64,000 nucleotides of DNA from an uncultured bacterium (GCA_903857865.1 CAIOGO010000008.1:12292-76291), one strand, 5' to 3'; positions 42,084 through 63,732 are shown, counted from the first letter of the stretch. Notes: generated from the letters alone by a model not told the origin. Program-made: numbers and translations.

Positions 42084-44987
42084 ATGACGGCCCATTCGAT
42101 CGAACCCTATGATTTCAGAGCGATTGAGACGCGTTGGCGCGACACGTGGCGGAAGGGCGGCTACTTCCACGTCGATACGAAGGCGCGCGAGAACACCTTC
42201 TACTACCTGAACATGTTTCCGTACCCGTCGGGGTACCTGCACGTCGGACACGGGCGCAACTACATCATCGGCGACGTCCTCACCCGCTTCTACCGCATGC
42301 GCGGCTACCACATCCTGAACCCGATGGGCTGGGACGCGTTCGGCCTCCCCGCCGAGAACGCGGCCATCGACCGCGGCATCCACCCGCGCGAGTGGACGGT
42401 CAAGAACATCGCCCACGCCAAGGAGCAGTTCCGCGCCTGGGGCATCGAGTACGACTGGGACCGCGAGATCTCGACCTGCGACCCCGACTACTACCGCTGG
42501 ACGCAGTGGCTGTTCCTCGAGCTGTACAAGAAGGGCCTCGCCTACCGCAAGCTGGCGACCGTCAACTACTGCCCGCAGTGCAAGACCGTGCTCGCGAACG
42601 AGCAGGTCGTCGGCGGCGCCTGCGAGCGCTGCGGCACCCCACCCGAGCCGAAGACGCTCGAACAGTGGTTCTTCAAGATCACCGAGTACGCCGACCGCCT
42701 GCTCGACGACCTCGCCAAGCTCGAAAGCTGGCCCGAGAGCGTCAAGAAGATGCAGGAGAACTGGATCGGCAAGAGCGAGGGCGCCGAAGTCGTCTTCAAG
42801 ACCGAGAAGGGCGACGACCTCGTCGTCTTCACGACGCGGCCCGACACCCTGTGGGGTGCGACGTTCATGGTCCTCGCGCCAGAACACGCGCTCGTCGACA
42901 AGTTGGCGACGAAAGAGCAGAAGGCCGAAGTCGCCGCGTACCGCGACCGCGCGATCCGCACCTCCGACATCGACCGCCTCTCCACCGAACGCGACAAGAC
43001 GGGTGTGTTCACCGGCGCCTACGCCGTGAATCCGGCGAACAACGAACGCATCCCCATCTGGATCGCCGACTACGTCCTGATGTCCTACGGCACGGGCGCG
43101 ATCATGGCCGTGCCGGCGCACGACGAGCGCGACTTCGCGTTCGCCCTACGCTACGGCCTCCCGATCCTGCCCGTCATCGAACGCCTCGACCGCCGCGCCC
43201 GCGCTTTCGTGCCGTCGTCGGCCGTCGGCGGCGACTTCGAGAAGGTCGCCCGCGCTGACGAGCTCTCGATCGAGTCTGTCGCCGGGGGCTTCGTCATCGA
43301 CTGCGCCTGGGACAACGTGAACCGCGCCGTCCGCCTCATCCAGACCGCACTTGAACCGAACGGCTGGGCGTCCGTCGTCGGCACGCGGTTCGCGTTTATC
43401 TTCCACGACGCCGTCATCGCCCACGACTCCGCCGCCGCCGACCGCGAGATCGTCGCCCGCTGCGCACTCCTAACGGGGGCGACCTTCAACGCGCGAACGG
43501 CGATGGAGATCCTGACCAAGATCCCCGCCTACGAGGGCCTGCTCTTCCACGCCGGCGTCGGCACGATGCAGCACTCCGGCCGGTTCAGCGGCACGCGCGG
43601 CGACCAAGCCAAGGACATCGTGACCGCGTGGCTCGAGAAGGGGCAGAAGGGCAAGAAGGCCATCACCTATCGCCTGCACGATTGGCTCATCTCGCGCCAA
43701 CGCTACTGGGGCGCGCCGATCCCGATCATCAACTGCAAGAAGTGCGGCGAAGTCCCCGTGCCGGAGAAGGACCTGCCCGTCCTGCTGCCGGATGTTGCAT
43801 TCATTGGGAAAATGGGGCTCGCGGACATCCCCGGCTACGCCGACACGACGTGTCCCAAGTGCGGCGGCAAGGCCAAGCGCGACACCGACACGATGGACAC
43901 GTTCGTCGACTCGTCGTGGTACTACCTGCGGTTCATCAACCCGCACGACGCGCGGCGCGCGTTCGTGCGCGACGACGTCGACCACTGGCTGCCCGTCAAC
44001 CAGTACGTCGGCGGCGTCGAGCACGCGATCCTGCACCTCCTCTACTCGCGTTTCGTCACCAAGGCCCTCTTTGACATGGGCCACGTCGGGTTCGAGGAGC
44101 CGTTCGCCCGCCTGTTCACGCAGGGTATGGTCTGCCACACCGCGTACAAGTGCCCCGAACACGGCTGGCTGTACCCGAAGGAAGTCGCCGACGGCAACCG
44201 CTGCCCGCACTGCCAAAAGCCGCTTGAGAACCCATACTTCTCGATGTCGAAGTCGAAGAAGAACGTCGTCGACCCGTCCGAGATCATCGACCGCGTCGGC
44301 GCCGACACCGAACGGCTGTACACGCTGTTCATGGGTCCGCCCGATCGCGACATCGAGTGGTCGGAGGAAGGCATCCGCGGCTCGTTCCGCTTCCTGAACC
44401 GCGTCTGGGCGCTCGTCGTCGAGGCGACTCCGCGCCTTGCCCCACGGACAGCGGCCGCCGACCCGGCGACCCTCGACGCCGACGGAGCCGCGCTGTGGCG
44501 TCGCGTGCACCGCACGGTGCGCAAGGTGAGCGAGGACATCCAGGATCGCTTCAGCTTCAACACCGCCGTGTCGGCGATCATGGAGTTGACCAACGACCTC
44601 GGCCGCTACCTCGAACGCGAGGACGCCGATCCGGCGCTCCTGCGCGAGGCCGTCGACACGCTGATCCTCATCCTGTCGCCCATCTGCCCATTCCTCGGCG
44701 AGGAGCTGTGGCGCCGCGTCGGGCATGAAGGCTCGCCGCTCGAAGTCGGCTGGCCGCGCTACCGCGTTGACGCCCTTGCGGCCGACACGATCGAGATCCC
44801 GGTGCAGATCAACGGCAAGCTGCGTGCCAAGGTGGCCGTGCCCGCCGAAGTGGCCGCCGACGCCGAGGCGCTCAAGGCCGCCGCGCTCGCCGACCCCGAG
44901 GTCAAGGCGAAGCTCGAAGGCGTCGAGCTCCTCAAAGCCATCGCCGTGCCAAACAAGATGGTCAGCCTCGTCGTCAAGGCGCCATAG
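42084..44987 (+). CDS. leuS: leucine--tRNA ligase (967 aa, carries an extra insertion after the CP1 editing domain)
   Basis: [10 protein letters not shown] (HIGH), CP1 [27 protein letters not shown] (KMSKS). Confidence 0.97.
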
Positions 44988-45368
44988 GCGCTTGAGCTTG
45001 TACGCCAGTCGAGGAGTCGATCGAGAGTGGGCGGAGTTTGGCGATGGGTTGTCGAACGGAGTTGCCACGAACCAGGACGCCGAAGGGACTGAGCGGTCGA
45101 GAAGCGGCCAGGAGCCTGCCGTGAGGACAGAATCGACTGATGAGTCGCGCTTCACCTCCAAGCCCCATCCTGTCGAAGGTGGCTGCGCAGATCAAGCAGC
45201 CCCCTCGGCCCCTCGGCGCGGCGCGTGTGGTCCGCGCCCAGATGCATGCCCTGAAAGGTCAGCGGCCCTGGATTCGAGGAACTGCTCCCCGCCATCTGCC
45301 GCTAGGGGAGCAGCCTTCCTCGATAGGGACGGAGTGATAGGCGAAGCCAACGGCACACCCATGGCCTC

Positions 45369-45401
45369 GCCCCTAGCTGCTGCTCTCACGGAGCAGCAGC
45401 C
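45369..45401. repeat. hairpin repeat copy 1 flanking gmhB
   Basis: GCCCCTAGCTGCTGCTC-TCACG-GAGCAGCAGCC, a 10-bp stem. Near-identical copy at 46107-46137. Confidence 0.75.
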
Positions 45402-45413
45402 AATGACCCAGTC

Positions 45414-46064
45414 ATGAAGCACAACCTTGTTGGAGGCGGTTGCTCCAGAGAAGCAACCGCCTCCGTCCCGGAACACTGCGGCTCCTCGCCCGGGCGGGCC
45501 GCAGTGTTTCTTGACAGGGATGGAGTGCTGAATGACCAAACCGCCTTCGTCAACACGCCCGACGACTTCCGCCTCCTGCCCGGCACAGCCGCTGCCATTC
45601 GTCGCCTGAACGAGGCCGGGATCCCCGTCATCGTCGTCACGAACCAAGGCGGCATCGCGCTCGGCTACCTGACCGAAGACGACCTCGCGGCGATCCACCA
45701 GCGCATGGCCGAGCTGCTCGCAGCAGAGGGAGCACACGTAGACAAGGTCTACTCGTGTCCTTATTACCCGAACGGCACAATCCCCAGATACTCGAAAGAC
45801 TCTCCGGATAGGAAACCGGGCACCGGCATGCTCGAACGCGCCCGCGACGAACTCGGCGTTGACCTGTGCAAGTCGTACCTCGTTGGCGACGCCACGACCG
45901 ACATCCTCGCTGGCAACCGCGCCGGCTGCACCACCATCCTCGTCCAAACTGGCTTTGCCGGGAAGGACGCGAAAGCGCTCGCTGAGCCTGATCACACGGC
46001 CGCGGATCTCGGCGCGGCCGTGGACCTCATTCTCAGCCAACTGCTATCTCAGCGAGCTCGCTGA
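45414..46064 (+). CDS. gmhB: D,D-heptose 1,7-bisphosphate phosphatase (HAD-IIIA, GmhB-like)
   Basis: FLDRDGVLN (motif I), VVTNQGG (motif II), RKPGTGML, VGDATTDILAG. Confidence 0.8.
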   Translation: MKHNLVGGGCSREATASVPEHCGSSPGRAAVFLDRDGVLNDQTAFVNTPDDFRLLPGTAAAIRRLNEAGIPVIVVTNQGGIALGYLTEDDLAAIHQRMAELLAAEGAHVDKVYSCPYYPNGTIPRYSKDSPDRKPGTGMLERARDELGVDLCKSYLVGDATTDILAGNRAGCTTILVQTGFAGKDAKALAEPDHTAADLGAAVDLILSQLLSQRAR

Positions 46065-46106
46065 GCCCAGCCGAAGGCATCCAGCCGCATGTCGTCCACG
46101 CCTTCG

Positions 46107-46137
46107 GCCCTAGCTGCTGCTCCCATGAGCAGCAGCC
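46107..46137. repeat. hairpin repeat copy 2 flanking gmhB
   Basis: GGCCCTAGCTGCTGCTC-CCAT-GAGCAGCAGCC. Confidence 0.75.
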
Positions 46138-46322
46138 GACTACACGGTCGCCGACCTACCTGCCGCCGTCGATCTGATACTCGATCGCCTCGCGCCTGTA
46201 GTCACGTGACGCCGCCAGGTGAAGGCATCCACCCGAACTGCCTTCGCCCCTAGCCGCAACGCCGTAGGCGATGCGGCCCGTTGCGACACTCCGTCGTCAG
46301 CGGGTATCATCCGGTCAACACT

Positions 46323-46395
<73 letters not shown>

Positions 46396-46634
46396 CAACG
46401 CTATTCTGGACGCCGTTCTTGAGCCCTGTTCATGGGGCCTGGAGTCACTTTCCGACGAGCCGCAATGGAGTCAGATGTGGCTGCAGGCTCGGCCGTGGAA
46501 CTCCATCAGCTGCTCTGCACCTTCTCCGCCAGCTGTATCAAGGCTAGACTAACAGTGAGATGGTTCACTTCCGGACGTGAGGGCACATCCGAGACACTTG
46601 GTGCATTAGGTGACTGAGAAGGCCATTGCGACAA

Positions 46635-49600
46635 ATGACGGGCGGCGATGCAAGGGTTGACAGCGTAAGAGCGTTTCGTGCCGGCCACGAGTATCACGAG
46701 GCTTGGACGGTGAGTCTAGCACTGCAGCTCTTGCAGCTCTTGCGGCCGGACGATGACCTTGTCGCGATTGCTGTCGAAGGGCTCTCTCCGGTCGATCAGG
46801 CTCGCGCCTCGGCGCGAGCCATGGAAATAGCGGACCTCACGCTCTACTACGGCGATGGACCGAGCTTCGAGGAGGCTTCGCGCGTCCGCGTTGTTCAGTT
46901 CAAGTACTCCGTAGCCGACAGTGACACGGACTTCCGGGCAAGCCACGCGAAGAAGACTATCGAGAAGTTCGCAGTGACATACCGCGAGGGTCTTGAGAAG
47001 TACGGCGCTTCGGCTGTAGAAGAGAAGCTTGGCTTCCAGCTCATGACGAACCGGCCAATCTACGCACCGCTTCTCCGGGCGGTGGAAGCTATAGCCCAAG
47101 GACTCCCTCGAACAGGAGAGATCGCGGAGCAGGCGAGGCAGTTCAAGGCTCATGCGCAGATGCACGGAGCGGCACTTGCCGCATTCGCCGCGAAGTTCGA
47201 ACTGAGCGGCCGTTCCGGAAGTCTTCAAGGGAAGAAGACGGAGGTCTCAACCTTGCTGGCTGACTGGTCGGCAGCGAGCGGCCAGGACCTCGTCGTCAGG
47301 GCGCGGCTTGGCGACCTGCGGGAGCTGGTTCGGGACAAGGCAGGCGAGAAGGGAGCTCCCCAGAATTGCATCACTCGAACGGACATCCTGGCAGTGCTTG
47401 GGGTGCACGACTCTGATGATATGCTGCCATGCAAGTCGGCACTCTCAGACGTCGGGAGGGTCGTTGAGCGCCAGCAACTCACCGATGCAGTCACTCTGAT
47501 CTCTTCCCTTACGATTCCGCTCGTGATCCACGGATGCGGAGGTATTGGCAAGACCGTGTTCATGTCCAGTCTTGCTGCGAAGCTTGCGGAGCGTGACGAG
47601 GTTCTCTTCTTCGACTGCTTCGGTGGTGGAGCCTATCGCGCCATAGACGAAGCAAGGCATCTGCCGCAGAGCGGTCTCATCCACATCGCGAACACGTTGT
47701 CGTTCCGCGGGTTATGTGAACCAATGCTACCTGGTAGTTCGGATGCGCGTTCGCTCATGCGAACGTTCAAGCGGCGTCTCATCCAGACTATCGCAACGAT
47801 ATCCAGAACGGAACCGGGAAGAGAAGTGATCCTGTTCATCGACGCTGTTGACAACGCTGCAATCGTCGCACAGGAGCGCGGTGACGATTGCTTCCCAGTT
47901 CAGTTGCTCGAGAGCCTCAATGACAAGCCCATCCCAGGTCTGAAAGTCATCGTCTCGTGCAGGACAGAGAACAAGCCCTCGACGTACGCGAGATACCAGG
48001 AATTCGAGTTGCAGCCGTTCACCAGGCTTGAAACGAAAGCATTCTTGCGTGCTCGGCTCAGGACGGTCTCCGAGACGGAGATCAACGTCGCGCAATCGCG
48101 GTCCGGCGGCAATCCGCGTGTACTTGCCCATCTGGCCGCGGGCGAGCGCGGTCTGCTTGATCAGTCTGAGATCGAGAAGAAGGTCGAACTCGACGAGCTC
48201 ATCCAGCAACGGATTGACAACGCGGTCGACACAGCCATCAAACGTGGGTGTACGCAAGGCGACATCAATCGATTCTTGGCAGGACTGGCTGTTCTGCCCC
48301 CGCCCATTCCGCTTGACGAGTGTGCTAGCGCGCTTGGCACTGACGAGAGCGCGGTCAAGAGCTTCGTCTCAGATCTCTTCCCATGGCTGGAGCGATTCGA
48401 CCAAGGCATCATGTTCAAAGACGAGCCCACCGAGACGCTGATTCGCCAGGAGTACGCGTCTTCTCAAGAGCTTCTTCGCCGTGTCGCCGACAACCTGTTC
48501 GCACGCCAAGACGAATCGGTGTATGCAGCTCGTGCTCTTCCAGAACTTCTGTACCGGCTCGATGATGGCAAGAGGCTCTTCAATCTGGCATTCGATGGTC
48601 GGATTCCTGCGGCGATAACAAGCGCGGTAGGCAGGAGGAGCATCCGGTATGCTAGGCTCAGGGCCGCGACACTCCACGCTGCGGAGAAGCGCAATGCTGA
48701 CGGGCTCGTGAAGCTGCTTGTGGAGCTGTCCACGGTCGCCGTCTCTGATCAGCGCGGGGCCACCTACATCCTCGAGCATCCCGATCTCGTCGTGGCCGCT
48801 AGGGACGCTGACGCGATGCGTCGGCTCTTTGAGACGCGCACCGGGTGGCCAGGGGCGCGTCATGCGAGGCTTACGATTGCCAATGCAGTTACCGGCGAAT
48901 TCGAGGAGGCATCGCGCAACGCGTCCGCGGCCAGAGAATGGATCAACCACTACCGCAGTCAACCTGATCACGCAAGACAGAGGAACGATCACGGTCCGGA
49001 ACGCCCGGACATTGCTGCTATACCACTCCTCCTGATCTCGGAGAGCCGTGCGAAGAACGCAGCGAACTTCCTCCGCGGATGGCAGGACTGGTATGCATAC
49101 GAAGTCTGCGAATGCGTATTCGAGTACTCCCGTCTGGCGCAAACGATCGGGACACAGTCGCCCCGCCGATTGTCTCGCTTTGTCGGTGAACTTGAGGGAA
49201 TCGGACCGCTTGCGGCGGCCCTTTCTTTCTCGGAGATCGGAAGGCCAAGACGCAAGGACTTGGTTGAGAAGTTGGCGGGGCTCTGCCGCAAGAGAACGCA
49301 GCTCCGGATCTCGGACAGCTTCGCACACAACGCGAGATACACCCTTCAGGACGGCCTTCGCAAGGCCGCCGCGATGGCCTTGGCGCTGGGGCTTGACGCA
49401 CAGGCGTTGGCAATCGCAACGCGTGCTCCTCATCAACGCCCGCGAGTCTCATCGTACCGCGATGTCTTCTATCATTCGGATGTCTTCCCCTTCCTGTTCC
49501 ACACGGCGCTCGTTGCCGCTGTGAAGGAGCAGCCTCTTCATGAGAAGGACGTCTTGCCTGCGGAGCTTGTGCCAGTCTGCTCTGCAATCCGCAAGAGCCA

Positions 49601-52600
49601 GGCAGGAAGCCAGTTCCGCGCCAAAGCGAAAGCGAGACTGCTCAAGAGCCCACAGAAGCAGCGCGCTGTGGAAGGGCAGGAGCCGCGCGCGCTGAGCTAC
49701 GAGGAACGCCAACAGGCCGAGCATTACCTCGACCACCGCTTGGGACCGCTCCTGGCGATGGCGCGGGCACTGTCGGCCATCCTTGCAGCGTCTTCTGGCG
49801 TAGTCGACAGAGCCTTCTTGGATCTGCTAGGGGTGTGGAAGGATGCTCGAAAGAGCCACGATTCATATCGAAGTGAGAAAGCCAGTCGCTTCTTCGAGAT
49901 GCTTGGCCTCGATGCGGCGCTCTTCGCGTTGTGGGCGCGTGGCGAGATCAGACCGGCATCTGTCGAATGCCTCCTCTCGACGATGCAGGACCAGGACGTT
50001 GGAGTCCAGTATCTCATCCGGCTCGTTTCGATTCTCGCAAGAAGACCTCACTTGCATGGTCTTGCTGGAGAGCTCGCGCTCAAGGCGCGCCAACATGTCG
50101 ACACCGAGCAGGACGTGGATTCCCGCGCATCGCTCTTCGCCAGTCTGGGTCGGGCCATGCTTCCCGCCAGCATTGATGAGGCAGCCACCTACTTCCGCAT
50201 GGGCCTTGAGCAGATGGATGCTATCGGTGCAGGGGACTATCGCTTCGTGCACGAGGTTCTCTCGTTCGCATCTGCGATCAAGGGCGGCGAGCTTGAGGAT
50301 CGTGACGTTCTCACCCTGGAAAGCATCTGTGAGCTCAACATGGGTGAGGAGGCGGAGAAGTTCACCTGGGGAGTGTACGGGCAGGCCATGTCCAAGTGCT
50401 CCGGTCTCAGAGGCCTGGCGACTCTGAGCAGGTGGGACGATCGCTCTCGGATCGCACTTCGCAGTACGCTGCTGCCCTATCTCACTGCACTGGTCGAAGA
50501 TGGAAAGCTTGCACCCGAGGATGCGCTCTCGCTCAATCATCTCGCTGCTCCCGCTGAGTACTGGGATAGCGGAACACGTGAGTTCGCGCGGGCCATCCGG
50601 GGCAAGGCCGGACCTGATCCGGAGGTTGTCTCTGAGCTCATCCAGCAATACGAGAAGAACAACCCAACAGCTCCGTGGGACGAGACCCTCCAGGCTCTTG
50701 CAGCCTTGGCGGAGGAAGCTTTCGGAGCATCTTCTGACACCGTCGGCCACCTCACCGCCGCTAGCGAGCGCTATGGCAGCACTCGTCATACGCTGAACGA
50801 ATACGGAAACTACAGCGGCGAGTCCGCATACAGAGAGCAGATGAGGGAGCGCGCGGACAATGAGCGGCAACAGGATCGCGCCAACGCAGAGAAGATTGGA
50901 GACGACGCCGATCCGACCGACAAGGCCTCGCTCTCTCGCGCAATCAGTGCTCTCAACGGACTGCAGTATGCCTACGACTTCAGGGCCGACTTCTTCTCCT
51001 CGATTCGCACCAGAGTCCCATTTGCCGAACACGCCAGGTACATCCACAACCTCTGCGATCTGGAGCACCTGTCGCTCCACTGGAAGCTGGCGGAGCTAGC
51101 AGAGTGCAAGCAGGGGTGGGGAAGATCCTCTGCTGCTCTCGGTCCGGCCCTACGGAGTGAAGCCATTCCCCTGATCGGGCTCCACGCTGATGACCTTCTG
51201 GGCGAAACTCTCGCCGGTTCGCAGATTGCGGAGATCTCCAACCTGACTGGGACACCAAGTTATGAGCTTGTCCTCGAGCTCATCCGAGTCGCTGCAAGGC
51301 GAAGGAGATCCGTCGCTGGTGCGGTCTGGCTTGCACTCGGCTCGTTTGTCTGTCCCCGTGCGAACGACGGCCAAGCTCGAGTCGCTCTGAGGCGCTTGCT
51401 CGGGAGTGATGCTGCGAAGCTTGCCGAGCGCGGCGCCAGCGAACGTTGCTCGGGTGGGCCTTACCCCACAGGCGACGTGCCGACGGTCGCGGCGGGACTT
51501 GTATGGAGAGCACTTGGGTCACCCTGCGCAGAGACGAGGTGGCACGCTGCCCACAGTGTCCGATGCTTCGCAAGGTTCGGACGATGGGAGGTTGTGGATT
51601 CGCTCGTCCGCCATCTCAACTGTAAAGATGCTGGGCCATTTCAGGCACCCGAACTCGCGTTCTACTATCTGCACGCCAGGCTTTGGCTCCTCATCTCGCT
51701 CGCTCGGACGGCGCTCGATCATCCCGAGGCGATCGCACGCTACAAGGATGACCTCACTTCACTCGTCATGGAAGAGCAATGGCCGCATGTTCTCATGCGC
51801 CACTTCGCCGCACGCGCGCTTCAGTCCTGCATCAATGCTGGAGAACTCACGTTGCCAGAGCCCGAGGAGAGGCAAGTGCGTACGATCGATCTGACGCCGC
51901 ATCCTCATCTGAAGGAGAGTGGGACGGAGCGCACAGATTCGTACCACAGTCGTCCGGATTCGATTCCGAGACCGGCTTTCGAGCTCCATTTCGACTACGA
52001 GTTCCACAAGCTTGATGTAGACAGCCTGGGCCGGGTTTTCGGCAAGTCATGCTGGGAAGTCGCCGATACGATCTCGTCGATCGTTCATCGGCTTGACCCG
52101 GCGGTGTCCAGCATGTACGACGCCGGTGGTCGTGACTCACCGCAGCGATACGGCTACTACGGCTTCGGCACGGAACATCACGGGTACGGCCAACAGCTTG
52201 GTTGGCACGCGCTCTTCATCGCTGCAGGCGAGTTCCTTAGGGCGCTTCCCGTCGTGGATAGTCCGTGGTACAACGAGGACGCCTGGGAGGAGTGGCTCGG
52301 CCGGTATCTTCTCACTCGAGAGGATGGACTCTGGCTTTCGGATGGCACGGACACCCAGCCATTGGATACAGCCAGCACTCTCCTTGAGAAAGGGACGAAG
52401 AGCCTCAAGATCACTGGGGCCCGAAAGAGACTCCTGCAACTAGCCGGAATCGGCGACGCTGTTGGAAAGGAATTGGTCGTCGAGGGGAGGTGGTTCTCTG
52501 CAGACGATATCGGCATCCACATCTCATCAGCGTTGGTTCCCCCAAGCAAGGCCAGGGTGCTTGCGCGAGCGCTGACTCGTGAAGAGCCCGTGATTGTCTG

Positions 52601-53102
52601 GATTCCCGTACTTGATGAATCCGAAAGCGACCTGGGCTACCGACAACAAGAGTACGCACCCTGGATCGTCTGCCCGTCCGGCGTCGCTCGGCTTGACGAA
52701 CACGATCCCTACGGAGCCACCGTTGCGAATCTCAGGCCGCGCCTGGCACGCGAGATCTTGAGCTTGTACTCGCTCAGGAGCCGTGATCCATTCGAGCGAG
52801 TCTGGTCTGACAAGCGAGACGCCGCAATGTTGCGTGCTGACGCATGGGGCCGCGACGAGACGGACGCTCGGCGAAGTCCACATCCAGGGCTACGCCTGAT
52901 CTGTGCCTCTCCTTTGCTCAGGAGGCTACTGACCAAGAGAGATCGGGACTTGCTTCTGCTCATCAAGCTCGAACGCCACGAGAAGAGGCATGGACAAGAC
53001 AGCGAATGGAGCCACACGATCGCCGTAGTTCGCATTGCTAAGACGCTTGACCTTGAGTACTTCGAGGGGCGCACGAACCATGCATACAGACCTGGGCGCT
53101 AG
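46635..53102 (+). CDS. giant STAND NTPase with N-terminal Cap4/DUF4297-like PD-(D/E)xK nuclease domain and about 1600-aa unassigned C-terminal region (Avs/bNACHT-like defence candidate)
   Basis: N-terminus GGDARVDSVRAFRAGHEYHEAW...IAVEGLSPVD...EIADLTLYY...VVQFKYS. Walker A GCGGIGKT (47532-47555), Walker B VILFIDAVD (47826-47852), GGNPRVLAHL. ATG 46635 (TTG 46626 also possible). Confidence 0.8.
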   Translation: MTGGDARVDSVRAFRAGHEYHEAWTVSLALQLLQLLRPDDDLVAIAVEGLSPVDQARASARAMEIADLTLYYGDGPSFEEASRVRVVQFKYSVADSDTDFRASHAKKTIEKFAVTYREGLEKYGASAVEEKLGFQLMTNRPIYAPLLRAVEAIAQGLPRTGEIAEQARQFKAHAQMHGAALAAFAAKFELSGRSGSLQGKKTEVSTLLADWSAASGQDLVVRARLGDLRELVRDKAGEKGAPQNCITRTDILAVLGVHDSDDMLPCKSALSDVGRVVERQQLTDAVTLISSLTIPLVIHGCGGIGKTVFMSSLAAKLAERDEVLFFDCFGGGAYRAIDEARHLPQSGLIHIANTLSFRGLCEPMLPGSSDARSLMRTFKRRLIQTIATISRTEPGREVILFIDAVDNAAIVAQERGDDCFPVQLLESLNDKPIPGLKVIVSCRTENKPSTYARYQEFELQPFTRLETKAFLRARLRTVSETEINVAQSRSGGNPRVLAHLAAGERGLLDQSEIEKKVELDELIQQRIDNAVDTAIKRGCTQGDINRFLAGLAVLPPPIPLDECASALGTDESAVKSFVSDLFPWLERFDQGIMFKDEPTETLIRQEYASSQELLRRVADNLFARQDESVYAARALPELLYRLDDGKRLFNLAFDGRIPAAITSAVGRRSIRYARLRAATLHAAEKRNADGLVKLLVELSTVAVSDQRGATYILEHPDLVVAARDADAMRRLFETRTGWPGARHARLTIANAVTGEFEEASRNASAAREWINHYRSQPDHARQRNDHGPERPDIAAIPLLLISESRAKNAANFLRGWQDWYAYEVCECVFEYSRLAQTIGTQSPRRLSRFVGELEGIGPLAAALSFSEIGRPRRKDLVEKLAGLCRKRTQLRISDSFAHNARYTLQDGLRKAAAMALALGLDAQALAIATRAPHQRPRVSSYRDVFYHSDVFPFLFHTALVAAVKEQPLHEKDVLPAELVPVCSAIRKSQAGSQFRAKAKARLLKSPQKQRAVEGQEPRALSYEERQQAEHYLDHRLGPLLAMARALSAILAASSGVVDRAFLDLLGVWKDARKSHDSYRSEKASRFFEMLGLDAALFALWARGEIRPASVECLLSTMQDQDVGVQYLIRLVSILARRPHLHGLAGELALKARQHVDTEQDVDSRASLFASLGRAMLPASIDEAATYFRMGLEQMDAIGAGDYRFVHEVLSFASAIKGGELEDRDVLTLESICELNMGEEAEKFTWGVYGQAMSKCSGLRGLATLSRWDDRSRIALRSTLLPYLTALVEDGKLAPEDALSLNHLAAPAEYWDSGTREFARAIRGKAGPDPEVVSELIQQYEKNNPTAPWDETLQALAALAEEAFGASSDTVGHLTAASERYGSTRHTLNEYGNYSGESAYREQMRERADNERQQDRANAEKIGDDADPTDKASLSRAISALNGLQYAYDFRADFFSSIRTRVPFAEHARYIHNLCDLEHLSLHWKLAELAECKQGWGRSSAALGPALRSEAIPLIGLHADDLLGETLAGSQIAEISNLTGTPSYELVLELIRVAARRRRSVAGAVWLALGSFVCPRANDGQARVALRRLLGSDAAKLAERGASERCSGGPYPTGDVPTVAAGLVWRALGSPCAETRWHAAHSVRCFARFGRWEVVDSLVRHLNCKDAGPFQAPELAFYYLHARLWLLISLARTALDHPEAIARYKDDLTSLVMEEQWPHVLMRHFAARALQSCINAGELTLPEPEERQVRTIDLTPHPHLKESGTERTDSYHSRPDSIPRPAFELHFDYEFHKLDVDSLGRVFGKSCWEVADTISSIVHRLDPAVSSMYDAGGRDSPQRYGYYGFGTEHHGYGQQLGWHALFIAAGEFLRALPVVDSPWYNEDAWEEWLGRYLLTREDGLWLSDGTDTQPLDTASTLLEKGTKSLKITGARKRLLQLAGIGDAVGKELVVEGRWFSADDIGIHISSALVPPSKARVLARALTREEPVIVWIPVLDESESDLGYRQQEYAPWIVCPSGVARLDEHDPYGATVANLRPRLAREILSLYSLRSRDPFERVWSDKRDAAMLRADAWGRDETDARRSPHPGLRLICASPLLRRLLTKRDRDLLLLIKLERHEKRHGQDSEWSHTIAVVRIAKTLDLEYFEGRTNHAYRPGR

Positions 53103-53314
53103 GCGCGCGCACCGGGCACGGACTGCGGCGAACACCTATGCTTCTTTGTGCTTGCAGTGTGAGGCGCGCCGCTCTGACACGTCAGGCGACGGCTCCCGCT
53201 CGTGGACCAACGCTGCGGTGCGAGCTGAAGCACAGAAGACGTAGACATCGACGCTGTGTTCTCACGATGCCGTGACTGGGAGGCACCCGTCACCACTCTG
53301 CGACGGTCACACGC

Positions 53315-53343
53315 GTTCTCTGATCGGTCCCCCAGGCTCCACA
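53315..53343 (+). repeat. 29-mer tRNA-3'-end-like repeat, copy A
   Basis: GTTCTCTGATCGGTCCCCCAGGCTCCACA, identical at 55793-55821 and 63733-63761. The ending GGCTCCACA matches the tRNA-Ala 3' end. Confidence 0.9.
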
Positions 53344-53444: not shown

Positions 53445-53461
53445 GGTTCGAGTCCCCTAGG
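53445..53461 (+). repeat. attR-like exact copy of the tRNA-Ala T-arm/acceptor segment
   Basis: GGTTCGAGTCCCCTAGG equals 46374-46390. Confidence 0.9.
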
Positions 53462-53661
53462 GTCGCGTGATGTGCATCACACTCGCTCCCGTAGCTGGAA
53501 TCCCTCCTTCTTCGTTTAACGATGGGCTCGGGGGCAGATCAAGCTGGGCGTAGTCCGGGTCCGTGCCGACGCAGCCTGTCATCTGCTGCAACCTGGGCGC
53601 AACCCCCAAGCGATCCCGATTTCGGATCCACCCTGGAGGTCTCACGGGAGCACGTCGGCGC

Positions 53662-55593
53662 CTACTGCTGCGACAGTGACGCTCTCAACTCCGAAAGGCG
53701 ACCGGTCAGTTCTCGGGCCTTCACAGTGCCGGGCTCATCACCGATGAATCGAGACAGCGCTTGCGCCTGCGCCGCCAAGTCCGAGAGCTTATCCAGCTCA
53801 AGACCTCTTCCCGAGCCAGCCTCGATCCTCCAGCGGATCACGTCACGGACGGAGTTTGACCAGGCGGTGATGTACCCAAGGCGCCGGTAGAGGTCCACCT
53901 GGTCTTCCGAGAGCTGCGCTTTCGTCAGCGCCGGTCTGCTCTCTAGCCGTATGTGCAAGCGCTTGGCATGCTGGCTTCCGAAGTAGTTGTCAGAGAAGTC
54001 GAAGTGCCTCTTGGCTCTCCACAGATGGAAGGCCGCCCAGCACCTAGCAATCCTCCAGACCTGCGTCCACCTTCCCCCGCGCTTGAGCGCCTCATGGAGG
54101 CTCTCTACTGCCTGGGCAGCAAGCAAGTGGAGGTTTCCCGCTGCGCTCGACAGCCGCTTCCTGCGCGGGACGGACTCGGGGCCAAATCCACAAGACCAGC
54201 ATACGACCGAGGCTCCAAGCAGGCGAACCCAGATCCCAAGCCACCGACCGCCAATAGCCGCCATCTGAGTCCACCAGGGGGATCCCCTGTCGGCGGCGCT
54301 ACCGCGCTGGGCCGCGGGTGAACGGACGCGTAGCAGTGACGCCCGTGTCTCGGCGAGACCGAGGCGCGCGCTGCTCAACTCGATCCGCTCTACTGCATCT
54401 TCGGAAGCTCTCAGCGCGGCGGTGTAGCCCTGCTCGGAGAGAGCGAGCGATTGGGCGGTGTGGGATTCGAGGAAGTGAGCTCGCGCCTTCGCTTTCTGAT
54501 ACCAGACCTGGTTTCGCAAGGATGGTCTGTCGTCTGCCATCCCCGCAAGCAGCGCGAGGGCGGCTGAGCCCGCCCCCACGTCAAGCGCTGCCAGACACGC
54601 CCACCTCGCCGCTTCGCCTGGCGGGAATGCACTCGTATCGACTGGCAGACTCCCGCATGGGCGCGCAGAGCTTTGGGAACCCCTTGGTTCCGGCTCCATG
54701 CTGACGGAGGCACGCTGTTCAAGAGAGAGCGTGGCAGACAGTCTCTGGAAGAACGGTACGGCATCTCCACACATGGCCACTGTCGATGGGAAGCCAAGGA
54801 TGCGTCTAGCATCTAGCGAGACGTCTGCATTCTGCCCGTGCAGATTCCAGTAGAAGCGAGACGCGCCCGCCTTAAGCAGCAACGGGCAGATGTCGAAGTC
54901 GAAGCCGCTGTACCCAAAGACGACGACGGTCTTGCCGTGGATGAGCTCTTTCAAGAGATCCCGCTTCCAGGGAGGAAGCGCGCGCTCTGCCGAGAGCGAG
55001 GAGACAACTGTGCGGGGTTCATCGATACTGCCATGGATCTTGAAGAGAGGAGGCAGTGCCGGGGACCATGAGTCGAGCTGTCTCTCCTCGAAGATGCGGG
55101 TGTTCTCCCGCGCAGCTGGCGTCCAGCACTGCTCGATGAGGGTATCATAGTTCGTCGTCACAATGGCCGAGGCAGCAGGCGGAGAAGCCGCAAGGCAACC
55201 TGCAAGCGTCGAGTGTATCTTGTTGCTCGTTCCAGACGCGAGGTTTCGCACCAGGAACTGCTGGACCGGGCCCTCGCCTATCTGGGCATCATAGATGTCC
55301 AGCAAGCCCTCAAGGGGGACACCGTGGACTTGGAGTCGTTCCTGCAAGCCAGGAACGGGAAGCTCGCAGCCTCCGAGCGCGGCAGCAAGGGTCGCTGCAA
55401 GGTCAACGGGAAGTGTCCGGAACGTGTCCGATCCGATGAGCATAGCAGCCAAGCTTCGCCGGAGCTCCTCACCAGTCGGGAGACAGGCCGGCGGAGGCTT
55501 GGAAACACCCGCGCCGATGAAGAACACGAGATCTTGCGGAGGCACCGCAGCGATTTCGTCGACGAGATCAGTGTTACTGGGGTAGTCTGCCAC
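53662..55593 (-). CDS. SIR2_2-domain protein with unassigned alpha-helical C-terminal half (defence-associated sirtuin candidate)
   Basis: LVFFIGAGVS, VTTNYDTLIEQ, LFKIHGSIDEP, VVVFGYSGFDFDI. GTG 55593 lies 5 nt after GGAGG. Confidence 0.8.
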   Translation of the reverse strand: MADYPSNTDLVDEIAAVPPQDLVFFIGAGVSKPPPACLPTGEELRRSLAAMLIGSDTFRTLPVDLAATLAAALGGCELPVPGLQERLQVHGVPLEGLLDIYDAQIGEGPVQQFLVRNLASGTSNKIHSTLAGCLAASPPAASAIVTTNYDTLIEQCWTPAARENTRIFEERQLDSWSPALPPLFKIHGSIDEPRTVVSSLSAERALPPWKRDLLKELIHGKTVVVFGYSGFDFDICPLLLKAGASRFYWNLHGQNADVSLDARRILGFPSTVAMCGDAVPFFQRLSATLSLEQRASVSMEPEPRGSQSSARPCGSLPVDTSAFPPGEAARWACLAALDVGAGSAALALLAGMADDRPSLRNQVWYQKAKARAHFLESHTAQSLALSEQGYTAALRASEDAVERIELSSARLGLAETRASLLRVRSPAAQRGSAADRGSPWWTQMAAIGGRWLGIWVRLLGASVVCWSCGFGPESVPRRKRLSSAAGNLHLLAAQAVESLHEALKRGGRWTQVWRIARCWAAFHLWRAKRHFDFSDNYFGSQHAKRLHIRLESRPALTKAQLSEDQVDLYRRLGYITAWSNSVRDVIRWRIEAGSGRGLELDKLSDLAAQAQALSRFIGDEPGTVKARELTGRLSELRASLSQQ

Positions 55594-55792
55594 ACTCACC
55601 TCCGCCGGGAGACTCCAAGAGGATATCAACCTGATCCCCCAAGACTGAACCGCGGCATCAGGTGAACCTCTCACCTTGACGTACCTACAGCGTGGAGGAG
55701 CCAAGGTGGCCGCATTGTAGATCGGAACGGCGAATGCGGGTCTTGGCTGGCATGATGTGGACCCGGATTACCAGCGAGCGACGGCCACTCGA

Positions 55793-55821
55793 GTTCTCTG
55801 ATCGGTCCCCCAGGCTCCACA
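55793..55821 (+). repeat. 29-mer tRNA-3'-end-like repeat, copy B
   Basis: Identical to 53315-53343. Followed at 55847-55876 by a second repeat type (GTTCTGGTTACAGTCATGCAGGCTCCACAG). Confidence 0.9.
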
Positions 55822-56102
55822 CTACCACTCTGTAGTCAGAACGAAGGTTCTGGTTACAGTCATGCAGGCTCCACAGCCCGTGTATTCTCGTTCCCTTCTG
55901 CCGTTTCCGCCTTCGCGCTAAGGCTGTCAGCCCGTTGTTGGTGGGAACGCTGTGTAGCCGCCAAGGAGATGCGAGCAGTTGCGCTGCCCAGGATCCAGGG
56001 GTTCGCCACGATGCTCGCAGACAAGCAGAATCTCACGGCCCCTCCGCCAACTGGTGATACAACTCTCGGCTCACCCGACTGGCGGCCGTGCAGATTGCCA
56101 GC

Positions 56103-58040
56103 CTAATCTGAGAGGCCAACCCTCCTGAGAAGGTTGGTATACCGAGGATCCGAGCGGACGGAGGCAAGATGGGAGTCCATCTTCATCGACGAGAGCTGGG
56201 GATCGCGTTCAGCGTACGCGCGCTCGAGAAGCTCGAATCCCTCTTCATTCCGACCCAGCGCGAAGTGAAAAAGAGCGACCAAATAGGGCGAGAGCGGTTC
56301 CGTCTTTGCGTGTTCAAGAACCGTGTTCAGCGACGCCTCAATGGCGCCGCTATCCCCCTTGGCTTCCCGGACGGCAGCGAGGCAGAGCTCAAGTTCCGGA
56401 TCGAAAGACCCTGCGAGCTCCCGCGCTCTCTCAAGGTCGGCCTGAGCCAGATCCAGCCGCCCTTGCTGTAGGTAGATCTCCCCACGCCACGCGCGCAGAA
56501 CGCGATTGTCCTCTCCGAGCGCGAGCTGCATGTCGTATTCAGCAAGCGCCAGGTCTAGCTGCCCGGCGCTCTGGTAGGCATTCCCGAGGGCACCGTGCTG
56601 CACGGCGGACAGAGGGTCGAGCGTCTGAGCCGTCATGAGCGCGGCGATTGCCTCATCAGATCGTCCGCACGTGGAAAGATACAGTCCAAGCCAGTGATGG
56701 GCCAGCGCGTAGCTGGGCGAGAGTTCAATCGCCCTGCGCAACTCCCTCTCCACTCCTTCTAGGTCGAACTCCCAAGAGAGGATGCCCGCAAGCGCAACGT
56801 GGGCCTCCGCCAGATTGGGGTCAAGGGTCAGTGCTTCAAGTGCACTCGCCTTCGCCTTGGGAACCACGTCAGCGAGCGCCATGGGTTCGTAGTTGGGCAG
56901 GACCGCGTATGCGATGGATAGCGCCGCGTGGGCTGCAGCGTGCCCGGGGTCGAGCTCGATCGCTCGCTCAAAGCACTCGATAGCGTTGCGGATATTGCCG
57001 GTGGACCTGCGACTCATGAAGCCGCGGCCCTTCAAGTAGGACGCGTAGGCTTCCGGATTCGCTTTCGCCGGCTCGCCGGCCGGCCGCATGGCCCTCGGCA
57101 CGAGCTGGACTTCTAGAGCTGTGGCAACGCTGCGAGCAACCTCACTCTGGACCACGAACACGTCATCCAACGTGCGATCGTACGTCTCCGCCCACAGATG
57201 GGCCTCGCGTGCGACATCGATGAGTTGGAGAGTGATCCGCAGGCGATTCCCCGCTTTGCGGACACTCCCCTCGAGAACCACACCGACGCCCAGCTCGCTG
57301 CCGACCTCCGACACTGCTTTCTTTGCACCGCGGTACTTCATCACCGACGTAAGGGCGATCACCTCGAGTCCGCTTACTCTCGATAGGGTGAAGATCAACT
57401 CCTCGGTCAGCCCGTCGGCGAAGTACTCATCTCCTGGTTCTGGGCTCATGCTCATCAGTGGCAGGACGGCGATGCGGGACGACTCCCCTGCTGGGTGCGC
57501 CGGAGCCTCGTTCCGCATCCAGGGGAGGAGCATCTTGTAGACCTCGATCGAGACCTTCACGTTCTTGAGATCCTTCTTGCCGAGGCTCGCCATGGGGAGG
57601 TCCGTCTTGTTCCAGACTTGGTCGTAGACCTGACGGGAGAGACAGATTCCTCCAGGTTCAGCCAGCGGCTCGATGCGCGAAGTGATGTTCACCCCGTCAC
57701 CGAAGATGTCGCCGCCCCGGTGAACGACATCTCCGAGGTGAATGCCGATACGCAAATGGATGGCGCGGTCAAGAGGGACCGCGCCGTTGCGCTCGTGGAG
57801 GGCCCGCTGGATCTCAACAGCGCAGCGGACAGCCTGAAGGGCGCTGGGGAATTCGACGAGAAACCCGTCTCCTGTGCCTTTCACCTCGCGGCCTTCGTGC
57901 TCGGCGAACAAGGGGCGAAGGAGTCGCGCGTGTTCTTCGAGGAGTGCCAGAGTCAGGGCTTCGTCGGTCTGGGTAAGCGCTGTATACCCGACAACGTCCG
58001 TCAGCATGATAGCTGCAAGCTGTCGAGTGTCCTTGTCCAT
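56103..58040 (-). CDS. class III adenylate/guanylate cyclase fused to a TolB-N-like module and TPR repeats
   Basis: IMLTDVVGYTAL, KGTGDGFLVEF, RIGIHLGDV, GDGVNITSRIE, then TPR-like repeats. ATG 58040 preceded by AAGGAGAG. Confidence 0.88.
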   Translation of the reverse strand: MDKDTRQLAAIMLTDVVGYTALTQTDEALTLALLEEHARLLRPLFAEHEGREVKGTGDGFLVEFPSALQAVRCAVEIQRALHERNGAVPLDRAIHLRIGIHLGDVVHRGGDIFGDGVNITSRIEPLAEPGGICLSRQVYDQVWNKTDLPMASLGKKDLKNVKVSIEVYKMLLPWMRNEAPAHPAGESSRIAVLPLMSMSPEPGDEYFADGLTEELIFTLSRVSGLEVIALTSVMKYRGAKKAVSEVGSELGVGVVLEGSVRKAGNRLRITLQLIDVAREAHLWAETYDRTLDDVFVVQSEVARSVATALEVQLVPRAMRPAGEPAKANPEAYASYLKGRGFMSRRSTGNIRNAIECFERAIELDPGHAAAHAALSIAYAVLPNYEPMALADVVPKAKASALEALTLDPNLAEAHVALAGILSWEFDLEGVERELRRAIELSPSYALAHHWLGLYLSTCGRSDEAIAALMTAQTLDPLSAVQHGALGNAYQSAGQLDLALAEYDMQLALGEDNRVLRAWRGEIYLQQGRLDLAQADLERARELAGSFDPELELCLAAVREAKGDSGAIEASLNTVLEHAKTEPLSPYLVALFHFALGRNEEGFELLERAYAERDPQLSSMKMDSHLASVRSDPRYTNLLRRVGLSD

Positions 58041-58234
58041 GACCTCGCTCTCTCCTTCTTGTCCGGCAGTATGGGATCTCGGGCGTGCCGCGGCAAGTAG
58101 AGACCAGCTCCAGCTCACGCTCCCGCAAAGGAACTGTTGGGGTTGGCAGGAACGAGGTGGGCGCGGACAGCCTATAGTCCCCCAATGAGGAGGCATGACC
58201 TGGCTGGCGCTGCCACCTTGCGATCAGGACGAGA

Positions 58235-58371: not shown

Positions 58372-59487
58372 TCACGGGCAGAGGGCGAAGAGCACGTCTC
58401 GCGCGAGCACCATCTGGAAGAGACGCCTCGGCTCATCACCGATGGGTCGGACGGTGAGGGTCAGGTCCGACCCCTCGACGTTCGCTGCGGTCATCGTGAA
58501 GGCGACCTGCGAGTAGGGCTGCCCTCCCTGGGCGCTCGCGCCGAACTCGGCCAGACCTCGCCGGAGAGGAAGATCGGAGTCCGCGGAGGCCGGGTCGAGA
58601 AAGCGCAAGACGAAGGTCCCGACGGGCACATCACCGTCGTAGCGGTACGCCACTCCAAACGCGGTGAAGAAGTGAAGGCCGGCCCGCTCGGCCAGAAGCG
58701 CGTTCAATGCAGCGTACAAACCCTGTGGGTCGCTCGCATGGATGAATGACTGGAGTACAGAGTCGGGGGACAGGATCGAGCAGGCTCCCGGGCCGATCAC
58801 CAGGATCGCCGACGCCACGCCCTGCAGTCGGCCGGTCAGCCCCTGAGCCGCTGCATCCTCGCTCAGAGTCGGGATCTCTCCTCGATAGGCGCTCAACGCC
58901 TCGTCCAGAGCCGCCGCAGACGATGACAGGATGAGCAGCCCGTCCTCGGCCACAACGGCCGTATTGAGGATGGCCAGTTCACTCTTGGCCAGCCATGCTG
59001 CCCCGAAGTCAAGCGGGTGCGAGTAGACCGCCACGCCGTGCGACTCCGTTTGCGTGAACCCGCGCTGCTCGAACAGGGACACGAGTAGGCCAAACTGGAA
59101 CCCAGCAGCGAACTTCAGCACGTAGACAGACATCGCCGTGCCATTTGTGAAGTTGGCCTCCCACTGGAGGTCGCTGCTCCGCCATCCCCAAAGCGCGGCT
59201 TGGTCCGGGTGGTTCGCTCCGAAGGCAGAGGCGGCGGCCTGGCCTCGGCCGAGACTCGTGGTGAGTGCCCTCTCCGCGTCCTCGGGGCTCTGCTGGAAGG
59301 CCGCATCGAACCCAACGTAGCCCTTGAGCACAGTCCAGTCCGTGAAGTAGACGGTCGCTGAGACTGACCCTGCCGGGACGAGCGACAGCACGTCGAGGAG
59401 CGGTGAGGAGTTGGCCACGTCCTCGCCCAGTACGCCGACCGCGCCCGCCGCCACAACGAGGAGCAGGAAGAAGATTGATGCCTTCAT
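58372..59487 (-). CDS. hypothetical secreted protein
   Basis: ATG 59487 preceded by GGAGGTG. Signal peptide MKASIFFLLLVVAAGAVGVLG. No family recognised. Confidence 0.6.
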   Translation of the reverse strand: MKASIFFLLLVVAAGAVGVLGEDVANSSPLLDVLSLVPAGSVSATVYFTDWTVLKGYVGFDAAFQQSPEDAERALTTSLGRGQAAASAFGANHPDQAALWGWRSSDLQWEANFTNGTAMSVYVLKFAAGFQFGLLVSLFEQRGFTQTESHGVAVYSHPLDFGAAWLAKSELAILNTAVVAEDGLLILSSSAAALDEALSAYRGEIPTLSEDAAAQGLTGRLQGVASAILVIGPGACSILSPDSVLQSFIHASDPQGLYAALNALLAERAGLHFFTAFGVAYRYDGDVPVGTFVLRFLDPASADSDLPLRRGLAEFGASAQGGQPYSQVAFTMTAANVEGSDLTLTVRPIGDEPRRLFQMVLARDVLFALCP

Positions 59488-59965
59488 CACACCTCCGTAC
59501 CACTGGCCGACAGCACGCACCATTGGCATCCTCCTCACCACCTGCGACGCTCTCCGGTCACGATCTCTCTCAGGTGCCGCTCTGCTGTGCAGGGCGAATG
59601 CGATCCCACGTTCCGCTGACCTGCCCGCCAGAGCGTCGGATCTCTCGATCCGAGCTGCCCCACCATAAGCACTGCTGGCCAGTCACTGCAAGTGCTGCGC
59701 GTAGCCCGCGTCTGGGCCAGCCGGACACCCTGCTGCATGGCTGAACCCTCTACGCCCGGCAGGTGCGTGACGTCTTGTCGCTGTTGGCGGAAGCTGCTAA
59801 CTTCTCCTGCGACGCGGACCGCACGCGGGGCAGGTCAAGATGGCCTCGATCGTCCAGCTGAGAAGGCCATGAGTTGGTCCGACGGAGAGCGGCTGACGTC
59901 CTCACCAGCGCCGGTGGACAATGGCTCTTGGTGAACTGAGCGAGAGAGGTCATGGAGGACAGCAC

Positions 59966-63620: not shown

Positions 63621-63732
63621 CCGGCGGAAGGGTCGCATCCTACTTCTCTACACCTCCAGGCGACCATGGGTCGCGTTCGCGCTTGTGTGCTGGGAGACGT
63701 GCATTCGTCACCACTCCGCGACGGCCACATGC

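Follow-up and report, generated by a model that had tools for sequence, protein, structure and literature searches.

Our analysis of this stretch of DNA from an uncultured bacterium (64,000 nucleotides, hereafter the window) indicates that its 2155-aa nuclease-STAND protein is quite probably a member of the Avs3 family (AVAST type 3), an antiphage sensor and effector in one protein; it falls in a sister clade of the typed Avs3a proteins and would act without the small protein Avs3b. We favor this assignment because the homology to SeAvs3 is collinear from end to end, because none of the nuclease and Walker residues is lost, and because the gene stands alone in variable, acquired DNA. The reading frame is intact and begins with ATG, and the public gene call agrees with it exactly; a listing of open reading frames extends the same frame to 46626..53102 (+) by way of an alternative TTG start at 46626. 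Table 1 collects the features of the locus.

Table 1. Features of the avs3-like locus; positions are counted from the first nucleotide of the window.
Feature	Position	Strand	Basis or remark
tRNA-Ala (anticodon GGC), insertion hotspot	46323..46396	+	ARAGORN; its 3' 17-20 nt recur downstream
Predicted Avs3-family antiviral STAND gene	46635..53102	+	2155 aa, intact, stop codon included; Avs3a profiles and SeAvs3
N-terminal Cap4-type PD-(D/E)xK nuclease domain, ~residues 1-200	46635..47234	+	SeAvs3 alignment, Foldseek
STAND/NACHT NTPase module, ~residues 270-560	47442..48314	+	Pfam NACHT, Walker motifs
Walker A, GCGGIGKT	47532-47555	+	In NTPase module
Walker B, ILFIDAVD	47829-47852	+	In NTPase module
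GGNPRV	48105-48122	+	In NTPase module
Helical (TPR-like solenoid) sensor part, ~residues 561-1889	48315..52301	+	Profile alignments, DSSP
Beta-strand-rich C-terminal sensor domain, ~residues 1890-2155	52302..53099	+	Strands of the model, Avs3a profile
Right boundary of the Avs3 module, ~55-nt repeat	53289..53343	+	Ends in a 17-nt copy of the tRNA-Ala 3' end (53327-53343)
Second, different tRNA-Ala 3'-end fragment	53445..53464	+	19/20 to 46374-46393

Against the NCBIfam model for Avs3a (NF041816) the protein aligns in three collinear stretches, residues 11-817 to profile positions 1-801 (E 8e-128), residues 1104-1497 to 1047-1425 (E 6e-22), and residues 1611-2124 to 1539-2059 (E 2e-81), and the PADLOC profiles (Avs3a, PDLC02167) give the same collinear picture. 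Each third of the protein matches Avs3a alone, which is the only strong profile match in PADLOC and NCBIfam together; none of the other Avs models in the two collections, those for Avs1, Avs2 and Avs7 included, matches any part of the protein. When the PDB was searched with phmmer, SeAvs3 (8dgc_A) was the sole match at E <= 0.01, with an E-value of 1.7e-128 and again three collinear stretches. A 30-sequence profile of the clade matches SeAvs3 (PDB 8DGC) at E 1e-189 and covers residues 11-821 and 1094-2117, the second of these aligned to SeAvs3 1049-2050. Overall identity to canonical Avs3a is 20-23%, and the score against NF041816 is 791 bits, far short of the equivalog cut-off of 2800 bits. 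Judged by its sequence, the protein is a family-level homologue of Avs3a and not an equivalog by NCBI's criterion. The preliminary description of this gene had set its proposal against an end-to-end match to an already typed Avs subtype; such a match is essentially what we find, although identity is as low as just given and residues 822-1093 are left out of the alignment.

The same description had proposed a Cap4-type PD-(D/E)xK nuclease followed by a STAND/NACHT NTPase and a large sensor, on the logic of antiviral Avs proteins, and both the layout and the logic are borne out. The 2155-aa frame and all the motifs it had quoted were recovered where it had placed them: IAVEGLSPVD at residues 45-54, EIADL at 64-68, VQFKYS at 87-92, GCGGIGKT at 300-307, ILFIDAVDNA at 399-408, and GGNPRVL at 491-497. 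Across 27 sequences sampled from this clade and from canonical Avs3a, ten residues of these motifs never vary: E48, D67, Q88, K90, G303, G305, K306, D403, D406 and R495. From residue 11 onward the N-terminal domain aligns with SeAvs3 from its residue 7 onward, and we propose E48, D67 and Q88-x-K90 as the putative nuclease active site, their SeAvs3 counterparts, counted on the pairwise alignment, being E41, D62, Q82 and K84. A structure model of the nuclease, of low confidence (pLDDT 60), has the topology alpha-beta-beta-beta-alpha-beta. Foldseek ranks 8dgc first for this model (E 3e-10, TMq 0.55); LmuA (9hr5) and Cap4 (6vm6, 6wam) come next, at E ~1e-2 and probability 0.9-0.96, so that the model weakly suggests a fold-level resemblance to Cap4. 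Two of the Pfam families that had been put forward for these domains fared differently in hmmscan of the full 2155-aa protein: NACHT (PF05729) was found over residues 296-474, at 29.8 bits against a gathering cut-off of 26.7, whereas DUF4297 gave no match at E <= 1.

Some 1600 residues of sensor had been described as unassignable, and they looked so because Pfam alone yields a marginal NACHT match and neither DUF4297 nor TPR; we dropped a case for novelty on Pfam alone once the Avs3a profiles and SeAvs3 had matched. Within this region residues 1104-1497 and 1611-2124 follow the Avs3a profiles collinearly, and Foldseek leads to 8dgc as well; outside residues 822-1093, the helical part is homologous to the sensor of SeAvs3. 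The sensor model (AlphaFold2, residues 1000-2155) was made from a shallow alignment of 10 sequences and has pLDDT 62 and pTM 0.33. Foldseek places 8dgc first for it, at E 7.7e-23 over 1168 columns, and generic alpha-solenoids next, at E 1e-4. The global TM of the model to 8dgc is 0.16, but since the model is globally poor, as its pTM indicates, we set TM-scores aside and relied solely on the collinear alignment from Foldseek. By DSSP, residues 1022-1889 of this low-confidence model are all-helical and its strands start at model residue 894, which gives a beta-rich part of ~260 aa from about residue 1890 rather than the mixed alpha/beta final ~450 aa suggested before. The sensor is probably the known Avs3 sensor, and a new ligand-recognition module is not supported.

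How would such a protein act? SeAvs3 is activated by the phage large terminase, tetramerises and degrades double-stranded DNA (PMC13601566). By analogy with SeAvs3 (PDB 8DGC; PMC13601566, PMC12803255), the 2155-aa protein would be an autoinhibited monomer in the uninfected cell. [quoted passage not shown] The assembled Cap4-type nuclease would cut double-stranded DNA indiscriminately, and the infection would be aborted. Terminase sensing by the clade as a whole is, on this analogy, likely.

It could be argued instead that the Avs3b-less clade has been retargeted, keeping the same STAND-driven Cap4-type output while its diverged solenoid reads another phage protein or another feature of the terminase. 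In bins of 100 aa from residue 800 to residue 1600, identity to canonical Avs3a falls to 7-21%, residues 822-1093 are aligned by no profile, and the split between the two clades is deep in the tree; moreover, related Avs families that share the effector and the NTPase do sense other proteins, as Avs7, which combines Cap4 with STAND, senses the major capsid protein (PMC12803255). However, the terminase ATPase domain is bound by the C-terminal sensor, which is common to Avs2 and Avs3 (PMC13601566). Of all parts of the sensor in the 2155-aa protein this one is conserved best (E 2e-81), with 17-34% identity and with W1636, H1718, W1900, D1903, D2024, W2057 and W2071 invariant, and no model of another Avs family in PADLOC or NCBIfam claims any of the sensor. 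We therefore regard retargeting as rather unlikely and prefer an Avs3-type sensor of terminase.

The gene is one of many. Relatives of ~2150 aa each occur in at least 475 of the genome loci scanned (one genome per species), in hosts that range over Pseudomonas, Variovorax, Nitrospira, Acidobacteriota and candidate phyla, and the family counts at least 804 clusters. Public records name them 'NACHT domain-containing protein', 'ATP-binding protein', 'transcriptional regulator' or 'hypothetical', names that stay generic because the proteins lie below the Avs3a equivalog cut-off. The clades also appear to differ in gene content. Avs3b adjoins all 5 canonical-clade genes examined: it lies 3' of avs3a in the Klebsiella and Janthinobacterium plasmids, a two-gene AVAST type III locus according to PGAP, and homologues of it lie 3' of the canonical-clade genes of Priestia, Acinetobacter and Rhodococcus. 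By tblastn and a 5-sequence HMM, Avs3b is absent from the window and from all 80 relative loci searched (L001-L080); a literature search on 'Avs3b' returned nothing relevant. The tree and these searches place the gene in a sister clade of typed Avs3a, a large one without Avs3b. Of the earlier suggestion of a new Avs-like clade, only this weak form survives.

Turning to the genomic setting, the avs3-like gene starts 238 nt 3' of tRNA-Ala(GGC), and G+C drops with it, from 0.67 in the upstream core genes to 0.60 in the gene. The 3' end of the tRNA, an att-like core, is repeated downstream (46381-46397 versus 53327-53343, a 16/17 direct repeat), and the 17-mer of this end, with at most 2 mismatches, is present 4 times in the window, where 0.01 copies would be expected. 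In a related genome the same tRNA is without the avs3-like gene, and cargo differs between related genomes. The tRNA 3'-end repeats, the lower G+C and the related genome without the gene all agree with the earlier placement of the gene in horizontally acquired DNA at a tRNA. The ~55-nt boundary repeat, in which ~38 nt of conserved non-tRNA sequence precede the tRNA-like core, recurs at 55768-55821 and 63707-63761, and the low-GC island therefore reaches at least 63.8 kb. The gene had been called the sole cargo of a tRNA-Ala insertion, which is right for the first repeat-bounded module but not for the island, since the latter continues with further genes. At least three modules, that of Avs3 coming first, make up a cassette array at tRNA-Ala that has no integrase: no tyrosine or serine recombinase domain was found in ORFs of >=180 aa between 46.4 and 63.8 kb (a 17-kb island), nor among the larger ORFs scanned in three related arrays (L091, L093 and L094). 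The repeat is common to related genomes and absent from viral contigs and from other Avs3 loci, so it is a property of the tRNA-Ala hotspot of the host lineage rather than of the gene. We find no support for an integron-like array; an integrase was not found, and gene orientations are mixed.

Across the boundary repeat at 53289-53343 the avs3-like gene is adjoined downstream by a convergent SIR2-domain gene. Two adjacent genes that both look defence-like might form one two-gene system, yet they converge, the boundary repeat puts each in a module of its own, and an all-against-all BLAST of flanking ORFs found a conserved neighbour in 0 of 63 related loci, where integrases and transposases are the commonest neighbours; we consider such a pairing extremely improbable. 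A different doubt is whether we see a relic in decay, or a regulatory or housekeeping STAND ATPase that merely shares Avs3 ancestry, given that relatives carry generic public annotations and that the clade's role in defence is a prediction. A frame intact over 2155 codons, matches to more than 100 relatives that reach 99-100% coverage with 53-66% identity, and the retention of all catalytic residues speak against this very improbable reading, as do the position of the gene in a variable tRNA-linked island beside a SIR2-domain gene and the company of its relatives, which sit next to integrases and transposases rather than within conserved operons. An antiphage Avs3-family protein is thus the reading we retain.

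While no new mechanism is opened by this gene, it is of practical use for annotation: a large and generically named clade of conserved length may, by analogy with SeAvs3, be readable as Avs3-type terminase-sensing immunity. In most lineages the Avs3 core would moreover function as a single gene, a point of relevance to the role of Avs3b. A more speculative and, we think, unlikely proposal is that the ~800-residue solenoid of the Avs3b-less clade recognises a target other than that of SeAvs3 and, separately, that the array arises by site-specific cassette capture with a recombinase encoded elsewhere. If it were true, the target being another phage protein or the terminases of phage groups outside the range of canonical Avs3, the clade would count as an Avs family with a function of its own, widespread among environmental phyla.

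Some islands linked to tRNA genes grow by tandem accretion, as in cis-mobilisable elements and tycheposon-like cargo arrays. The array described here resembles them in that modules lie 3' of a tRNA and are each closed by a direct repeat of its 3' end, and in that cargo is variable; it differs in that an integrase was not found and in the ~38 nt of non-tRNA sequence carried by the repeat. As to the protein, the N-terminal domain shares with Cap4 (the CBASS effector, DUF4297) and with Lamassu LmuA the alpha-beta-beta-beta-alpha-beta PD-(D/E)xK core and the QxK motif, whereas here there is no SAVED/CARF or SMC partner and activation would come, by analogy, from STAND oligomerisation. The tripartite logic of effector, NTPase and sensor is that of Avs1, Avs2 and Avs7, of which Avs1 and Avs2 also sense terminase (PMC12803255, PMC13601566). 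Closest is SeAvs3/Avs3a, from which the protein is set apart by an identity of 20-23%, by its place in a deep sister clade, by a barely alignable central solenoid and by the lack of Avs3b 3' of the gene. With it the protein shares its length class (2155 aa versus 2092 aa), the order of Cap4-type nuclease, STAND NTPase, helical sensor and beta-rich C-terminal sensor, identical nuclease (E, D, QxK) and Walker residues, and collinear homology over ~82% of the Avs3a profile.

Our analysis indicates that the 2155-aa protein encoded in the window is a divergent relative of Avs3, and that the original finding, though real, is largely accounted for by a known family. The product starts at an in-frame ATG (46635), and an identical protein is present in public metagenome assemblies. 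All the sequence motifs quoted in the preliminary description are found in the protein (Table), and the G+C content is 0.60 in the gene vs 0.67 in the leuS and HAD genes upstream. The 17-mer at the 3' end of the tRNA-Ala gene occurs 4 times in the window with at most 2 mismatches, against 0.01 expected. Since the ORF, the motifs, the tRNA-Ala, the copies of its 3' end and the drop in G+C are all seen, the first observation is confirmed.

Table. Features of the Avs3 gene and protein, of the island downstream of tRNA-Ala, and of one repeat-bearing metagenome contig (L094)
Feature	Position	Strand	Remarks
tRNA-Ala(GGC)	46323-46396		238 nt 5' of Avs3 ATG
Long ORF (Avs3)	46626-53102	+	TTG start
tRNA 3'-end copy	53327-53343		16/17; past Avs3 stop codon
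tRNA 3'-end copy, different fragment	53445-53464		19/20; past Avs3 stop codon
Boundary repeat, three copies in window	53289-53343; 55768-55821; 63707-63761		all on same strand
Module 1			Avs3 gene alone
Module 2, SIR2_2-domain ORF alone	53662-55704	-	680 aa, 643 aa in public gene call; Pfam E 2.7e-13
Module 3			~8 kb; next three rows
Adenylate/guanylate cyclase domain and TPR protein	56103-58196	-	697 aa, 645 aa as called
ORFs without family match, beside cyclase-TPR gene	58372-59541; 61551-63401		
FMN-reductase-like gene	59921-60742		
Boundary repeat in L094	~2783, 4200, 7683, 9702, 12389		five copies in 12.8 kb
IAVEGLSPVD	residues 45-54		
EIADL	residues 64-68		
VQFKYS	residues 87-92		
GCGGIGKT	residues 300-307		
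ILFIDAVDNA	residues 399-408		
GGNPRVL	residues 491-497		
Match to Avs3a profile 1-801	residues 11-817		E 8e-128
Match to Avs3a profile 1047-1425	residues 1104-1497		E 6e-22
Match to Avs3a profile 1539-2059	residues 1611-2124		E 2e-81

Pfam by itself sees almost nothing of this protein, finding NACHT just over threshold (29.8 vs 26.7 bits, residues 296-474) and no match for the nuclease or the sensor. At the level of sequence comparison, the family is settled decisively by the defence-specific libraries, with E = 2e-201 for PADLOC Avs3a and E = 2e-237 for NCBIfam NF041816 ('AVAST type 3 anti-phage nuclease/ATPase Avs3a'). When the protein was scanned as three separate pieces (NCBIfam, with PADLOC giving the same picture), Avs3a was the only match of every third, in collinear register. 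Among all PDB sequences the sole match at E <= 0.01 is SeAvs3 (8dgc_A, 2092 aa; E 1.7e-128, three collinear stretches). A 30-member profile of the clade, the sister group of typed Avs3a that contains the window protein, matches SeAvs3 at E 1e-189, pairing residues 11-821 with 7-822 and 1094-2117 with 1049-2050; only residues 822-1093 stay unaligned, opposite an SeAvs3 gap of similar length (823-1048).

Structure models point the same way. The AlphaFold2 model of residues 1000-2155, built on a 10-sequence alignment, is mediocre (pLDDT 62, pTM 0.33), with helices to about residue 1889 and a beta-rich part beyond. Foldseek places 8DGC, the SeAvs3 structure, first (E 7.7e-23, 1168 aligned columns), followed by generic alpha-solenoids at E 1e-4; because the model is poor, the global TM (0.16) carries no meaning and only the local collinear similarity counts. 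The sensor that had been called unassignable is thus an Avs3 sensor, and what was put forward as a possible new kind matches a typed Avs subtype essentially end to end. The nuclease effector assigned to the N-terminus was right, since the model of residues 1-240, although weak (pLDDT 60), follows the alpha-beta-beta-beta-alpha-beta topology of a PD-(D/E)xK core, strands 1-3 carrying E48, D67 and Q88/K90, and since its Foldseek matches are 8DGC (E 3e-10, TMq 0.55), with the Lamassu nuclease LmuA and Cap4 (6vm6, 6wam) next, both at E ~1e-2.

The gene had also been described as the sole cargo of an att-bounded insertion, which holds for module 1 only, the island comprising at least three repeat-delimited modules. 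The right boundary of the Avs3 module is a ~55-nt repeat, GTCACCAC...GCGACGGYCAC..G.GTTCTCTGATCGGTCCCCCAGGCTCCACA, whose last 17 nt mimic the 3' end of tRNA-Ala and whose first ~38 nt are conserved non-tRNA sequence with two GTCAC motifs. The repeat also occurs in 7 metagenome contigs (L089-L095), in two of them downstream of tRNA-Ala(GGC), and it cuts the DNA downstream of this tRNA into cassettes of 1.2-8 kb with mixed gene orientations. One of these contigs, L095 (JGI Ga0105098_10005887), has the same leuS-HAD-tRNA-Ala backbone as window 44103-46401 (nucleotide identity ~82% for leuS and 99% for the tRNA); there a single 1.25-kb zinc-ADH-like (alcohol-dehydrogenase-like) cassette replaces the 9.4 kb with Avs3 and SIR2, and after it comes the junction sequence that is also seen at window 55821 (compared with 55790-55875). 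Viral contigs and the other Avs3 loci lack the repeat, so Avs3 is here one exchangeable unit at a tRNA-Ala hotspot specific to the lineage. No recombinase domain was found in island ORFs of at least 180 aa, and no integrase in the window array or the repeat arrays of the metagenome contigs, where the scan covered the larger ORFs of L091, L093 and L094; the array could represent integrase-less islands accreted in tandem or a cassette-capture site with its recombinase encoded elsewhere.

A second tRNA-3'-like fragment lies 40-120 nt past the main repeat at each module boundary (53445-53464, 55860-55877, 63808-63820), reading GTCCCCTAGGGTC twice and CAGGCTCCACAG once, which points to remnants of older or different att sites. 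The window sequence was also assembled independently in L084 (JGI 3300023311 contig Ga0256681_10003658), which breaks off within the tRNA-Ala gene, 294 nt before the Avs3 gene begins; this fits an assembly break from population heterogeneity at the hotspot. The SIR2_2 ORF has only weak PADLOC matches (ThsA, PDC-S25, SIR2-pAgo-associated; E ~1e-5) and no assigned domain in its C-terminal ~400 aa; it could represent a SIR2 defence gene of an untyped kind. Elsewhere in the clade, a tRNA lies 0.1-1.1 kb from the gene end in L039 (Leu, 14547-14633), L064 (Thr, 14603-14678) and L030 (Phe, 15586-15661); most clade loci lack a nearby tRNA, so a tRNA hotspot is an occasional setting for the gene and no rule.

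In a neighbour-joining tree the clade and canonical Avs3a are parted by a deep split, and two Agrobacterium plasmid proteins group on the window protein's side. In canonical loci a small avs3b overlaps the end of avs3a, and homologues also lie 3' of Avs3a-like genes in Priestia, Acinetobacter and Rhodococcus. Searches with tblastn and a 5-sequence HMM found no Avs3b in the window, in 80 relative loci or beside the Agrobacterium genes. Moreover, the flanking ORFs of 63 clade loci include no conserved neighbour, the largest cluster being integrases (7 loci) and the next transposases; thus the clade is a one-gene system. Relatives (E <= 1e-10) fall into at least 804 clusters when grouped at 90% identity, the best 120 of which are all ~2150 aa with 53-66% identity and 99-100% coverage. 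In a collection with one genome per species, at least 475 stretches encode a relative, and the matches listed include Pseudomonas, Variovorax, Lysobacter, Myxococcus, Leptospira, Nitrospira, Acidobacteriota, Verrucomicrobiota, Planctomycetota and candidate phyla. Insertions probably interrupt the gene in L047, L052 and L080, where the match spans 7.3-9.5 kb vs the usual 6.4 kb; within the L052 gene, on the opposite strand, lies a 91-nt 'tRNA-Ala' called by ARAGORN.

How might such a protein work? SeAvs3 is reported to tetramerise once it has bound the terminase, and its N-terminal Cap4 nuclease is then activated and degrades dsDNA. The protein recognises immutable features of the terminase, among them residues of the active site and the bound ATP; the beta-rich C-terminal sensor, which Avs2 shares, binds the ATPase domain of the terminase, and the nuclease domain is held by the helical region (PMC13601566; PMC12803255). 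In a 27-sequence alignment, 55 columns are invariant in both clades, among them E48, G49, D67, Q88, K90, G303, G305, K306, D403, A404, D406, R495 and a number of Trp, Asp and His residues in the C-terminal part. Along the protein, identity to canonical Avs3a is 21-32% at residues 1-800, 7-21% at 800-1600 and 17-34% at 1600-2100. The main rival reading, to which we give little weight, is that the diverged central solenoid has been retargeted to another ligand. The retained catalytic residues and NTPase motifs, together with a C-terminal sensor that is the best-preserved sensor part, argue instead that the window protein probably follows the SeAvs3 mechanism, in which it would bind terminase, tetramerise and degrade dsDNA through its Cap4-type nuclease, the identity of the trigger being the least secure step.

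What remains of interest is modest, namely a very widespread, poorly annotated sister group of Avs3 that lacks Avs3b and whose central sensor has diverged strongly. Public records name its members only generically because the clade falls below the NCBIfam equivalog cut-off; the window protein scores 791 bits with NF041816, far under the cut-off of 2800. By tblastn, PGAP-annotated avs3a on plasmids of Klebsiella variicola and Janthinobacterium lividum shows 28-30% local identity to it. Overall, in the same 27-sequence alignment, the window protein shares 33-57% identity with members of its own clade and 20-23% with canonical Avs3a proteins.
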